Part shown: positions 38,178 to 41,594 of the stretch, in pieces | Layout of the letters: every line of letters begins with the position of its first letter | How positions within the stretch are numbered: position 1 is the first letter of the stretch | Virus record (IMG/VR): IMGVR_UViG_3300033064_008235 | Span: 1,691-65,690 of that record | Reading direction: 5' to 3' (one strand) | Length of the DNA: 64,000 nucleotides | From: a virus | Taxonomy: Duplodnaviria; Caudoviricetes | Made by a program: the position numbers and the translations under genes | Notes under the pieces: model-generated | The model's input: only the letters and a program-made list of their open reading frames with translations | The model's database searches: none | Told to the model about the DNA's origin: nothing

Positions 38178-39020
38178 TCATTGCCAGTTTAATTTTTCTT
38201 GAGTATAAGGATATTCAGCATCATTATAGTAGGCCTTGCGCTTGGCCAAATGTCTTTTGCTGAATCTGCATGTTGATGTGATATCCCAGATCTGCACATG
38301 ATCTTTGTCTTCGGCTTTTCTAATACCACGCCCAATTGATTGGATTACCCTGGTGAAACTTTTACCGGACTCGATCATGACCAAGTTAAAGATTCTTGGT
38401 ATATTGATACCCACAGCAGCCACACCATATGTGGCCACAATGATTTTGCCAGTGGCTGTGGCCACTTGGTCGTATTCTTCCTGCCGTGCAGCACCTTTGG
38501 TTGCTCCTGACACAAACACTGCTCGATCACCCAGTCTTGCAACCAATTCACGTCCGGGTGCCACACGATCTACCAGCACTAGGGTATTACCAGTTTCATT
38601 CACTTGCAATACCAACTGAGCAATGGCGTCCAAACGTCCTGATTCTTCCAGTAGATATTTTAATTCTTGCTGGTAAGTTTTATGCTCTACTGTGTCAACC
38701 ATTTGCACCACATTCACATGACACTGTGCCAATACACCCCGTTCTTGCAGTTCACTGGCAGCTAATTTCGAAATCACTGGGCCAAGACTTACTAGCAATG
38801 ACTGGCTTTCAAACGCTTCTTTGGGAATGGTGCCAGTCAACCCCCAACGAATTGGCACTTGCGCCATCACACCTGTCAGCAGAGTTTTGAGTGCATCTGC
38901 TTTGGCCATGTGACAATTTGATACTACTGCACCATCTACAATGTAGTTGTGATCGTTTTGTATGTGCAAATTAAACACTGCAGAGGGTTTTGGTATTTCA
39001 ATTCTCTTTATTAATTTCAT
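38178..39020 (-). CDS. uvsW: UvsW-like SF2 helicase, piece 3, with 35 aa IntC (38916-39020)
   Basis: MKLIKRIEI..VFNLHIQNDHNYIVDGAVVSN|CHMAKA, GLTGT, ATYGVAAVGINIP, QSIGRGIR. Confidence 0.93.
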   Translation of the reverse strand: MKLIKRIEIPKPSAVFNLHIQNDHNYIVDGAVVSNCHMAKADALKTLLTGVMAQVPIRWGLTGTIPKEAFESQSLLVSLGPVISKLAASELQERGVLAQCHVNVVQMVDTVEHKTYQQELKYLLEESGRLDAIAQLVLQVNETGNTLVLVDRVAPGRELVARLGDRAVFVSGATKGAARQEEYDQVATATGKIIVATYGVAAVGINIPRIFNLVMIESGKSFTRVIQSIGRGIRKAEDKDHVQIWDITSTCRFSKRHLAKRKAYYNDAEYPYTQEKLNWQ

Positions 39021-39029
39021 ATAATTTCT

Positions 39030-40052
39030 TTATCTTTCTTGCTGTGCAGATACCAAATCTGCTGTAGTTGATATTAATTTTTTATTAATAATGTCATGTT
39101 CATGAGTCAACTCATCTGCTCGTATCCATCCTTGATCAGTGAGAAACTTATGATTACCGGTGACTTGTATTTTGTTACCATTATCAAATTCTAACTCAAA
39201 CATAGTTTCGCTAGCAGAATTTGTTAGGTTCTTATGCTGTTTAACTACCGTATCTACTTTAAACTCTTTAGTAGTCTCGGAATAGTTAATAATCTTATCA
39301 CCTGAGGTTATATCTTTAATCGCAACATATCCAGTAGGAGTTAACACCCTGCTATCTGCCGAAAAACATTCATCCACAATAACACAAACAACATCTTCGA
39401 TAAACTCTTGTATGGTGAAATCACCCGTGCCATCCTTGGTGTTCTTCATGAGATTGTTTAGACTTTGCCATGTGCATATGGTATGACTACGACCATATTC
39501 TTTTCGGTCTCCAAAATACACACCCACATCCAACTCCATGTTGATGTAGTCTTTTTCTGTTTGTGTCACAAGACTTTTGTTAGGCACAATCACAATACTA
39601 CGGCCATACTTGCTCACTGCATCGCTTAGTGCTGCTGTCATAATGGTATTATGATGTATTAGTCCGTTAGCATCATAATATAAATGCGGAGCATCGATTG
39701 AAATATCAAAACAATTTTCGTTGGCTGTGTTAAGTATTTTAGTAATCGTTATGCTGCCGGTCAAATGATCTACTGTTGATCCAATGGTCAATTGTTTGGC
39801 AAAAATATCATTGCCGTGCTGTTGTAGAATATGATTCTTTGCTACACGTATTACATATCCGTTATCAAATTCCAACTCAACCATTGGCAAATCAAACTTC
39901 TTTATGAAAGAGTTCACTTTTACATTTTTATCTAACGCCGAGACATAAATTCCAAAATTATCTACTGATATTTCTTGGTTATCTATTAAGGTTGTAGCAT
40001 TGAATTCCTCGATATATTCACAAAGTTTTCCAATTGGTATTTTAATTATCAT
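39030..40052 (-). CDS. uvsW: UvsW-like helicase, piece 2: 135 aa IntC + 93 aa extein + 112 aa IntN
   Basis: CFDISIDAPHLYYDANGLIHHN|TIMTAAL..IVPNKSLVTQ..CTWQSL..VIVDE|CFSADSRV..VTGNHKFLT. Confidence 0.93.
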   Translation of the reverse strand: MIIKIPIGKLCEYIEEFNATTLIDNQEISVDNFGIYVSALDKNVKVNSFIKKFDLPMVELEFDNGYVIRVAKNHILQQHGNDIFAKQLTIGSTVDHLTGSITITKILNTANENCFDISIDAPHLYYDANGLIHHNTIMTAALSDAVSKYGRSIVIVPNKSLVTQTEKDYINMELDVGVYFGDRKEYGRSHTICTWQSLNNLMKNTKDGTGDFTIQEFIEDVVCVIVDECFSADSRVLTPTGYVAIKDITSGDKIINYSETTKEFKVDTVVKQHKNLTNSASETMFELEFDNGNKIQVTGNHKFLTDQGWIRADELTHEHDIINKKLISTTADLVSAQQER

Positions 40053-41056
40053 TTAATAAAGTCCCGGCACTTTTGTAATATTTCTACTGGACTGGATATA
40101 TAATCATTTTCCCATACGATCATTACGGTATAATCGTTATCTTCTAAATCCCGAACTTTCTTTGAATCATGTAGCCAAACATCATTTACTTTCTTTTTTC
40201 GTATCATTTCATTACCTGTATATATTTTAGGATTCCCGTGCCAGTAGTCACCGTAGTATTCTATAATTTTTTTACCATATAAAAAATCTACACGATGAAC
40301 CTTTTGTTTTCCGCGGACTGTTTTTTCATCAGGACCATAATAACCTATTTCAAGTTGTTTGAATAATTCTATAGACTTTTTGCTACGGTTTGCTACCATT
40401 CTTTTATTACCTGGCGAATCAAGCCACTGTCTAATACGGGCATTGAACATCTCTTTACCGTTGCTACCATACTTAGATGTATAAAAATCTAACCCATTTG
40501 TGACTTGCACTTTACTAACCTTCAGAGTAGCTTCTTCGTGCGTGAGCCCTTTTTTGATCCAATATTCGACGGTCCTAATAGAATATCCACGTGCGCCTTT
40601 TTTTGCAGCTGGTGATTTTAACGATCTATCTTTTTGAACTTCTTTAGTCTTACTAAGGGCAGCCACTGCTGAATATCCCTTGCTAACCCAATATTCAATT
40701 GTATTTTGTAGGCCTTGTCTTTTGGCCAAGTTTACTGAATTTATAATGTCATTGGCGGTGGAAATAGAATAGAAGCAAGTTAATTTTTGTAAGGTCATTT
40801 GGTTTGTGCCATCGTGGCCGCATTGACAATTTTTCTTTGCAATATAATTACCTTTGTATATGCCAAGATCAAATTGAGTATAACAATGATGGCACAATTT
40901 GGTAGAAATTGGCGGCGCTTTTCCAATGAACAATTTACTCGAAAACACCGGTTTCTTTGATATAGCAATAATATCCCATTTGTCAATTTTGTGTAAGGTG
41001 CATAATCGTGGCCAGCTTTTTTCTTTAAAATTATCCATTATTTGATGTAACATCAT
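40049..41056 (-). mobile_element. Free-standing Vsr-like endonuclease inside split uvsW
   Basis: YW..KGY repeats, VDF..IIEYYGDYWHGNP..VMIVWE; overlaps both flanking pieces. Confidence 0.85.
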
Positions 41057-41594
41057 TATCCTGCTCCTGTTGTAATTTATTTATTATAAATCTACCAAAA
41101 GAAGTATTTTCATCAATATTAACACATAATAGGGTGTTACTTGCTAGACATTTGCCTGCACCAGTGGCCACTTCCTGCAGGCACTGCGGGTTGGCTAGAA
41201 AATTATTGATGATTTCCACTTGATAGTCACGTAGCTCAATGGGTTTGCCTGCCATTGGGTGATTGTGTGGCCAGGCTTTGTGGGCATAGGTCTGTTCGTG
41301 TACCTGATCAAACTCAAATGTGGTTGTGTAGGTACGTTGATCATCAAGCTCAACATCATAATTGTGTTTGTCTAGGATGGGCAAAATCTCAGGCAACAAG
41401 TTTACATAAGTGCTGCCGCCAAGTTGGAAGTAGGCCACTTTACCATCCCAGCGTCCTAGTCTCACTGCTGGCAGATAACGTGCGTAAGGTACATCATATT
41501 TGAATTTCTTTACTAGATCTCTGCGAGTGTCAAGATCTAGGCCTTCAATCTTAATGTTGACTTCGTCACGTATTATTATGGTTGCTTTTTTCAT
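41031..41594 (-). CDS. uvsW: UvsW-like helicase, piece 1, with 39 aa IntN (41034-41150)
   Basis: GRWDGK, Q motif LRDYQ, ATGAGK|CLASNTLL..*; start MKKATII. Confidence 0.93.
   Translation of the reverse strand: MKKATIIIRDEVNIKIEGLDLDTRRDLVKKFKYDVPYARYLPAVRLGRWDGKVAYFQLGGSTYVNLLPEILPILDKHNYDVELDDQRTYTTTFEFDQVHEQTYAHKAWPHNHPMAGKPIELRDYQVEIINNFLANPQCLQEVATGAGKCLASNTLLCVNIDENTSFGRFIINKLQQEQDNDVTSNNG

Follow-up and report, generated by a model that had tools for sequence, protein, structure and literature searches.

A uvsW-like helicase gene of a metagenomic phage lies in three pieces that are most likely joined by two different split inteins

Organisation of the locus

The DNA analysed here, called the window throughout, is a stretch of 64,000 nucleotides (nt) that forms part of a 65.7-kb virus record in IMG/VR (IMGVR_UViG_3300033064_008235, positions 1,691 to 65,690). 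The completeness of this record, estimated by CheckV at 19%, implies a giant phage; the nearest isolates are giant phages with helicases that are at most 54% identical to that of the window, and the runs in which the window was found by a sequencing-run search are freshwater and viral metagenomes. The subject of this report is a uvsW-like helicase gene of the window, which is distributed over three polypeptides and carries the fragments of two split inteins, one at the Walker A motif and the other at the Walker B motif. A megablast comparison of the 3.6-kb region with 50,697 phage records returned zero matches.

The open reading frame (ORF) list shows four tightly packed ORFs on the minus strand at 38178-41621 (Table 1). 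Three of them encode parts of the helicase (exteins 1 to 3) fused to N-terminal (IntN) or C-terminal (IntC) intein fragments, and the fourth, HEG1 (for homing endonuclease gene), lies between the two halves of intein 1. Piece boundaries were placed by locating the junction motifs on the minus strand with a script; in the motifs given below, a slash marks a junction between extein and intein. This layout had been read from the letters alone in an initial annotation of the window, and all of its elements, namely the 39-amino-acid (aa) IntN, the 135-aa IntC ending in HHN/T, the 93-aa helicase segment, the 112-aa IntN and the 35-aa IntC ending in VSN/C, were found where that annotation had placed them.

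The HEG1 ORF shares 26 nt with piece 1 and 4 nt (ATGA) with piece 2. Upstream of piece 1 lie a sigma70-like promoter (41649-41621) and a terminator-like hairpin (41673-41654), which are only suggestive because the numbers of sites found were no higher than in shuffled sequences (12 against a shuffle mean of 14.0 for the sigma70 scan, and 3 against 2.9 for the terminator scan). In the same weak scan, no terminator-like site was found on the minus strand inside the four-ORF unit.

Table 1. Features of the helicase locus, related protein clusters with a contiguous intein 1, and the gp41-like gene of the window
Feature	Position or identifier	Strand	Description
Piece 1 ORF	41031-41621	minus	From TTG, probable start ATG 41594; ends ..ATGAGK, 39-aa Cys-initiated tail, stop
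Piece 2	39030-40052	minus	135 aa to HHN; T plus 93-aa helicase segment to VIVDE; 112 aa from Cys
Piece 3	38178-39020	minus	35 aa to VVSN; then C plus 245 aa helicase
Extein 1	41151..41594	minus	UvsW-like N-terminal part, 148 aa from ATG 41594, ends in Walker A ..GAGK
IntN1	41034..41150	minus	39 aa; first ~26 aa intein proper; tail codons carry endonuclease-gene signals
HEG1	40049..41056	minus	Free-standing 335-aa Vsr-like / I-Bth0305I-like PD-(D/E)xK nuclease candidate, N-terminal Cys4 motif
IntC1	39648..40052	minus	135 aa, ends ..IHHN before Thr+1
Extein 2	39369..39647	minus	93 aa, T of Walker A (GAGK/T) to DE of Walker B (VIVDE/)
IntN2	39033..39368	minus	112 aa; intein part ~97 aa ending ..IINK; last ~15 aa window-specific tail
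HEG2 remnant	39021..39047	minus	TAA stop of piece 2 (39030-39032) plus 9-nt spacer; nucleotide alignment to L014
IntC2	38916..39020	minus	35 aa, ends ..VVSN before Cys+1
Extein 3	38178..38915	minus	245-aa C-terminal part from CH of DE/CH, including stop codon
Contiguous intein 1 clusters	P0007, P0009, P0018, P0045, P0061, P0062, P0083		501-514 aa, without endonuclease
gp41 N-piece	30191-31522	minus	Ends ..QLNR, then Cys-initiated IntN
gp41 endonuclease-like ORF	28792-30282	minus	496 aa
gp41 C-piece	28251-28856	minus	IntC ends ..THN/S

The helicase exteins

The exteins carry the features of a UvsW-type helicase of superfamily 2 (SF2), namely motif I (GxGKT), motif II (DExH), the second RecA-like domain and a likeness to T4 UvsW. 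Extein 1 matches the PHROG helicase families phrog_16259 (E 1.2e-15) and phrog_16; its resemblance to the UvsW N-terminal domain is weak, both in Pfam (UvsW_N, E 0.008, 17 bits against a cut-off of 25.3) and in phmmer comparisons with the PDB entries 1rif and 2oca (E 0.29-0.8). Pfam recognises ResIII in the extein 2 part of piece 2 (E 6.3e-6) and Helicase_C in piece 3 (E 6.3e-8), and the best PDB sequence match of extein 3 is T4 UvsW itself (2oca, residues 234-471, E 1.2e-17).

When the exteins are joined in silico, they yield a protein of 495 aa counted from the TTG or 486 aa counted from the ATG, in which GAGKT and DECH are restored. The alignment to intact homologues that the initial annotation had called for bears out its claim that splicing would rebuild these two motifs: the joined exteins are colinear with the helicases of Salmonella phage PHA46 (494 aa) and Sinorhizobium phage Phosso, with zero gaps at the junctions. 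Intein-free homologues read DEAH at the second motif, so that Cys+1 of extein 3 stands where they have Ala, as would be expected if the nucleophile had arrived with the intein.

Related loci were collected by searching IMG/VR with piece 2, which gave 59 loci that were sorted by tblastn of eight parts of the locus. Extein 2 is 72-97% identical across related loci. All eight parts are free of frameshifts and internal stops, both in the window and in the seven related loci that carry both inteins (L003-L009), and all checkable helicase motifs are intact.

Intein 1, an atypically split intein at Walker A

The 135-aa N-terminal part of piece 2 is not recognised by Pfam. A profile of nine IntC1 sequences matches the VidaL chain with an E-value of 7.2e-12, and an AlphaFold2 (AF2) model of IntC1, built on an alignment of nine homologues, has a predicted local distance difference test (pLDDT) score of 90.4. 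In a Foldseek search of the PDB with this model, the top hits were all inteins, comprising RadA (E 4e-7), VidaL, gp41-1 and the atypical intein 'Cat'; the match to VidaL (6vgv) had an E-value of 4.5e-6 and a root-mean-square deviation of 1.5 over 101 columns. Judged by its sequence, intein 1 is a relative of the atypically split VidaL intein (PDB 6vgv and 6vgw), and besides the match in sequence and fold the two share a Cys1 nucleophile and the combination of a short IntN with a long IntC. They differ in their dimensions: the IntN1 ORF has 39 aa, of which approximately 26 are in contact with IntC1, against 16 aa in VidaL, and IntC1 has approximately 13 additional N-terminal residues. The host gene of VidaL may be this same helicase. 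Characterised atypically split inteins have IntN fragments of 15-37 aa, with VidaL at 16 aa, according to PMC13014065.

An hhalign comparison of IntC1 with IntN2 (E 4.5e-5) places an A-x-x-H of IntC1 opposite the T-x-x-H block B of IntN2, and block B of intein 1 therefore resides in its C-terminal fragment, which is what makes this intein 'atypically split'. Among eight to nine homologues, the catalytic set is invariant, consisting of Cys1, His74 of IntC1 (within A-x-x-H), the terminal HHN and Thr+1. Residues Cys1, T6, F18, G19 and K25 of IntN1 are invariant in eight homologues, as are the block B His and the motif PH.Y.D..G..HHN of IntC1 among its homologues.

Models of the IntN1/IntC1 complex scored 0.90 by ipSAE, compared with 0.02 for the best control; three runs had at least 97% of contacts in common, the pLDDT of the partner was at least 78, and residues 1-26 of IntN1 lay in the interface. 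The 0.90 mark is reached by 58 of 80 solved complexes and by two of 110 mismatched pairs. Since split-intein complexes have already been solved, the score shows likeness, which may in part be a resemblance to those very complexes, and falls short of a proof of binding. In the models, a Hint fold would be reconstituted from the two fragments. The IntN1 fragment of a related locus (L004) is 28 aa long.

The fit of the two fragments is shown directly by seven protein clusters in which intein 1 is contiguous (Table 1). In these, the IntN1 sequence is joined straight to the IntC1 sequence to give a mini-intein of 151-170 aa at the same site (GxGK/C..HHN/T), followed by extein 2 and IntN2. The intein 1 family therefore occurs in both a cis-splicing and a split form at a single site.

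A free-standing endonuclease gene on the same strand between IntN1 and IntC1 is the layout by which fractured genes are recognised, and intein 1 of the window has it. The HEG1 protein of the window gave zero matches in Pfam, a single-sequence phmmer search of the PDB returned one chance-level row only, and the whole model (AF2, pLDDT 81) found nothing in Foldseek at E <= 0.001. Among its homologues, PF18741 was recognised in seven of eight and DUF559 in four of eight. The best PDB matches of an HEG1 profile were 3r3p (I-Bth0305I, E 0.0099) and Vsr (E ~0.7), and weak Foldseek matches of the model were to 3r3p (TMt 0.67, E 0.039) and 1vsr. On these results, HEG1 is a possible member of the Vsr-like family of fractured genes. 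Within the tail codons of IntN1 (..IINKLQQEQDND..; 41056-41090, minus) lie a TAAATA (at 41083) and, immediately ahead of the ATG of the endonuclease gene, an AGGAG Shine-Dalgarno sequence; this tail is probably conserved as the expression signals of that gene.

Intein 2 at Walker B and the loss of its endonuclease gene

Intein 2 is of a more familiar kind. Pfam recognises Intein_splicing in piece 2 above its cut-off (E 2.2e-12), and when pieces 2 and 3 are read through the intervening stop the match strengthens to E 2.2e-14 and extends over model positions 10-155 of 155. A profile of IntN2 matches solved inteins, among them NpuDnaB (E 3.6e-9). The motifs CF..D..VLT and VTGNHKF of IntN2 and the M1, DHNY, AVV and terminal N of IntC2 are invariant in 11 homologues, and so is the catalytic set of Cys1, T-x-x-H (TGNH), terminal Asn and Cys+1. 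For both inteins, this conservation of catalytic residues spans homologues that are 39-91% identical.

Piece 3 begins in the frame of piece 2, with only 9 nt between its ATG and the preceding stop. This stop could have been a nonsense mutation or have come from faulty assembly, and both possibilities had to be excluded. Logan contigs from run X1 (study P1, 2020, a viral metagenome) and run X2 (study P2, 2024, freshwater) cover 38100-41700 with 0 differences, X1 or X2 being a possible source sample of the window, and pieces 2 and 3 are linked across their junction by a 253-nt contig from run X6, again with 0 differences. Among relatives that lack the endonuclease gene at this site, the ATG is preceded in L006, L008 and L009 by three in-frame stops and an AAGGAAG Shine-Dalgarno sequence, and in L022 the split reads TAAATG. 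The TAA between pieces 2 and 3 is genuine. Hence, the possibility raised in the initial annotation that these pieces form one continuous ORF is refuted by the X1 and X2 contigs together with the stops of these four relatives.

The relatives also indicate how the stop came about. In 18 of the 26 intein 2 loci among the relatives, the two halves of the intein are separated by a gap of approximately 900 nt; IntN2 there ends in ..IINKT and a stop, and IntC2 has its own ATG. In all 14 of these 18 loci that were inspected, the gap is filled by an endonuclease ORF of approximately 300 aa, here called HEG2 (~303 aa), with a TnsA-like N-terminal part in seven of seven aligned members and NUMOD3 in four of seven; a search of the PDB with its profile found nothing meaningful. 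The window has no free-standing endonuclease in intein 2 and retains a 3' remnant only: positions 39047-38961 are identical to the HEG2-bearing L014 (3214-3300) at 69 of 87 positions, and the final 15 codons of HEG2 can still be read, in its frame, from 39021-39047 and the start of IntC2. Given this remnant, the inserts of the relatives and the independent stops of the endonuclease-less alleles, intein 2 was split around HEG2 first, and HEG2 was deleted later from the already split intein. A contiguous intein 2 was found in none of the 59 loci.

Several smaller observations concern this site. In L020 (5601-6512), the ORF of the intein 2 endonuclease starts only at 5700 and encodes 270 aa compared with 303 aa in near-identical relatives; this gene may be starting to decay. 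In run X1, a 232-nt contig of low depth (3.2) joins position 38912 to 39369 with three other letters in between and six mismatches in 50 nt, and represents a co-occurring relative without intein 2, that is, an empty homing site in the same sample. Runs X8-X20 contain only small shares of the stretch, with diverged relatives in pieces in X8; a joint seen in that run (39530->41152, side 23, intervening sequence not known) is too weak to interpret.

Recurrence, selection and movement of the cassettes

The hint of uniqueness in the initial annotation proved too strong, as the layout is common in metagenomes. Of the 59 loci, 31 have no intein (site 1 being off the contig in L057 and L060), four have intein 1 only, 17 have intein 2 only and seven have both. 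Among the 17, an endonuclease-sized insert is present in 15, while L022 is without an endonuclease gene and L026 is truncated where its contig ends. Among the seven, four have an endonuclease gene in each intein and three resemble the window; L003 is without extein 3, and L009 begins inside IntC1.

A wider census in a collection of 5.8 billion proteins returned 7999 proteins at E <= 1e-10, and the figures that follow refer to the best 120 clusters. These comprise 54 middle pieces of the IntC1-extein-IntN2 type (49 of 323-346 aa and five truncated), 36 N-pieces with intein 2 only, 23 C-pieces with intein 1 only and the seven clusters with a contiguous intein 1. The HHN/T junction is present in 54 of the 54 middle pieces and DE/C in 53. 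The three-piece arrangement is, on this comparative evidence, widespread and long-lived and no one-off. In a tree of the exteins (45 rows, with 15 loci left out, 13 for incomplete exteins and two as distant), the two three-piece classes require three and two label changes, which we read as five separate placements of the three-piece state, in the window, L004, L005, L007 and L006/L008.

Ratios of non-synonymous to synonymous substitution rates (dN/dS), calculated by the Nei-Gojobori method with many distant pairs saturated at synonymous sites, were 0.03-0.08 for the exteins overall (0.04-0.07 for extein 2 and 0.06-0.08 for extein 3), 0.09-0.30 for IntC1, 0.05-0.13 for IntN2 and 0.13-0.25 for HEG1; the 26 codons of IntN1 gave noisy values of 0.1-0.6. 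These values, all below 1, show purifying selection.

The intein cassettes are also mobile among diverged alleles. Between window positions 39648-41150 and L003 (1193-2695), the cassette of intein 1 and its endonuclease has a synonymous divergence (dS) of 0.20-0.28, compared with approximately 1.4 in the flanking exteins and saturation in intein 2, which suggests recent lateral transfer of the cassette by homing. In two of the 15 loci with intein 2 only and an endonuclease-sized insert (L058:2732-5464 and L059:1575-4307), an intein 61% identical to IntN2 lies with an endonuclease gene in a helicase that is only 25-27% identical to that of the window. The intein 2 cassette has apparently moved between distant uvsW-like genes.

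Assembly of the helicase and alternative explanations

We assign a probability of roughly 0.8 to the reading that the helicase is made as three polypeptides that are joined by two different split inteins. In this scheme, a uvsW-like SF2 helicase gene would have been invaded at two catalytic motifs by two mobile split inteins. Intein 1 would have entered Walker A (GAGK/T), its halves being parted by a putative Vsr-like homing endonuclease gene in the classic fractured-gene layout, and the canonically split intein 2 would have entered Walker B (DE/CH), where deletion of the ancestral endonuclease gene would have left the stop, the 9-nt spacer and the ATG. Three products, most likely derived from one transcription unit, would then associate, IntN1 with IntC1 and IntN2 with IntC2, and two trans-splicing reactions would release a 486-aa helicase with GAGKT and DECH rebuilt. 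We infer that this product is an active helicase. The split might let the phage time the assembly of the helicase, since HEG1 inside intein 1 has its own late-promoter-like signal.

That the two inteins are of different kinds, one atypically and one canonically split, was proposed in the initial annotation and has held up in the profile and fold match of intein 1 to VidaL, the match of intein 2 to NpuDnaB and the endonuclease gene that lies exactly at the split of intein 2 in relatives. The two would have to be mutually non-reactive, because the middle piece would otherwise cyclise or concatenate. Mis-pairing is probably blocked by topology: IntN1 (~26 aa) and IntC2 (35 aa) would together be too small for a Hint fold, and IntN2 with IntC1 would duplicate the block B lobe. 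In hhalign comparisons, no significant similarity was found between IntC1 and IntC2 (E 0.068) or between IntN1 and IntN2 (E 0.051, one column), which is an absence of close likeness and no proof of orthogonality. We regard it as slightly better than an even bet that the locus represents natural, widespread and selectively maintained tandem trans-splicing, in which three products are joined by a VidaL-type and a canonical split intein that do not react with one another.

Certain points weigh against this reading. In intein 2, the penultimate His, which is common but not universal among class 1 inteins, is replaced by Ser in the window and by Ser or Ala in relatives. In many inteins this His assists Asn cyclisation, but splicing can also proceed without it. 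Intein 1 has A-x-x-H in block B instead of T-x-x-H. Piece 3 is preceded by a weak Shine-Dalgarno sequence (AAAGAAA), piece 2 depends on the ATGA coupling to the endonuclease gene, and there are no RNA runs among the sequencing runs listed as holding the stretch. It is also conceivable that the open slot of IntC1 is contested by the N-terminal strands of IntN2. Finally, the exteins of the window are 98% identical to those of the intein-free L028 and L029; both inteins may therefore have entered this lineage only recently, and the window copy by itself gives no measure of selection.

Four other explanations were considered, and each of them fits the evidence worse than splicing in trans. The first is that the intein halves act as a non-covalent clasp, merely docking the three polypeptides into an unspliced heterotrimeric helicase, as has been proposed for NrdA of phage Aeh1. 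A fragmented ribonucleotide reductase has been described as assembled through interaction domains derived from a mobile element (PMC3045599), and an intein 2 that lacks its penultimate His would suit such a role. It is difficult, however, to reconcile a clasp with the presence and invariance of all class 1 splicing residues (Cys1, the block B His, the terminal Asn and the +1 nucleophile), or with breaks inside GxGK/T and DE/xH, where an unspliced Hint domain of ~135-170 residues would occupy the ATP site. Cys+1 in place of the Ala of intein-free homologues makes sense only for splicing, and the seven clusters with a contiguous intein 1 must splice in cis for any helicase to be made. We consider a clasp improbable.

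We give still less credence to a helicase gene that is decaying as a pseudogene in pieces, with the phage using other helicases. The window does carry a high load of elements, including a fractured gp41 gene at 28251-31522, and the loss of HEG2 demonstrates that deletions occur at the locus. Against this, the extein dN/dS of 0.03-0.08 holds between three-piece alleles even where dS is around 1 or saturated, no frameshift or internal stop interrupts the eight parts in the window or in L003-L009, the checkable helicase motifs are intact, and 54 diverged middle-piece clusters keep both junction motifs.

The least credible of the three graded alternatives is that intein 2 is a contiguous cis-splicing mini-intein and the gene is in two pieces, the TAA at 39030-39032 being an error, a very recent nonsense mutation or a site of readthrough. 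A single base change would indeed fuse the two ORFs, given the stop and ATG in one frame 9 nt apart. Yet the identical sequence was assembled in X1 and X2, from two studies four years apart, and is bridged by the X6 contig; the spacer is left over from an endonuclease gene between halves that were already separate; 18 of the 26 intein 2 loci have the insert of approximately 900 nt with its own stop and the IntC2 ATG; and the other endonuclease-less alleles have one to three stops and then an ATG, with no contiguous form in the 59 loci. Lastly, an RNA intron that rejoins the frames, which the initial annotation had named as a competing explanation, finds no footing in an Rfam scan of 37500-42500 at E <= 1, as this gave no intron family and only chance-level Bacilli-1 and MIR394 rows far below the gathering thresholds.

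Relation to known systems

Every component of the locus is of a known kind: fractured genes, VidaL-type and canonical split inteins, and Vsr-like and PD-(D/E)xK homing endonucleases. Furthermore, a gene with several inteins is unsurprising in itself. Phage genes 'fractured in two' have been described for eight host enzymes (Dassa et al. 2009, PMC2677866), and they share with the window the same one-strand order of N-extein with IntN, free-standing endonuclease, and IntC with C-extein, in a phage replication or repair gene. The Vsr-like intervening nuclease is the 'new family' of that paper, with which HEG1 is consistent. In the accessible part of PMC2677866, UvsW is not among the eight host enzymes and the string 'uvsw' occurs 0 times. 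Unlike the genes reported there, the helicase of the window has two splits in one gene, one of which is atypical and one of which is without an endonuclease.

The intein 2 family is open to experiment in cultured phages. In the T4-like Salmonella phage S16 (gp114 / gp114.1 / gp115; L062:2162-4888) and in Proteus phage PM2 (L063:2030-4762), uvsW is fractured at DE/C, the same site as that of intein 2 (..NDE/C .. N/CH), with 54-62% identity in IntN2, 46% in IntC2 and 38% in the TnsA/NUMOD3-type endonuclease. In their records, the pieces carry only the labels 'DNA helicase / hypothetical protein / DNA helicase'. In contrast to the window, the two phages have one split only and keep the endonuclease, and their IntC ends in HN as opposed to SN.

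The nrdA-a/mobE/nrdA-b genes of phage Aeh1 (PMC3045599) represent a further phage gene that is broken by a mobile endonuclease cassette and whose products must reassemble. Those genes in pieces are without the catalytic intein residues and their products assemble non-covalently, whereas the window keeps all of the splicing residues. In engineered tandem trans-splicing, three segments are joined by two split inteins without cross-reaction (Humberg et al. 2025, PMC12707363); that system is man-made and draws its inteins from different sources, whereas the window has a natural pair within a single gene, one intein being split atypically and the other canonically. In the open-access PMC and bioRxiv literature, we found no natural protein that needs two trans-splicing reactions, although supplements and subscription journals may hold one, and the same literature yielded no description of split inteins in uvsW.

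Protein engineers rely heavily on split inteins. To link three segments, they require two inteins without mutual cross-reaction, and at present they find such combinations by trial among unrelated sources (PMC12707363). Nature appears to have solved this task inside a single gene, with a pair that must stay compatible across many lineages. If the reading is correct, the pair would be a naturally co-adapted and possibly orthogonal set for three-fragment ligation, for which the 54 diverged middle-piece clusters would provide a ready-made library of intein pairs; the short N-terminal fragment of one of the inteins may suit peptide synthesis. The related loci show all stages of an intein and endonuclease life cycle at two sites, from empty through contiguous and split with endonuclease to split after endonuclease loss, and the movement of cassettes between diverged alleles makes the proposed 'fracture cycle' directly testable.

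A second helicase gene of the window is also fractured. At 28251-31522 on the minus strand, a gp41/DnaB-like replicative helicase is divided around an endonuclease-like ORF (Table 1), with matches to Intein_splicing. The intein of this gene may resemble the published gp41-1 intein.

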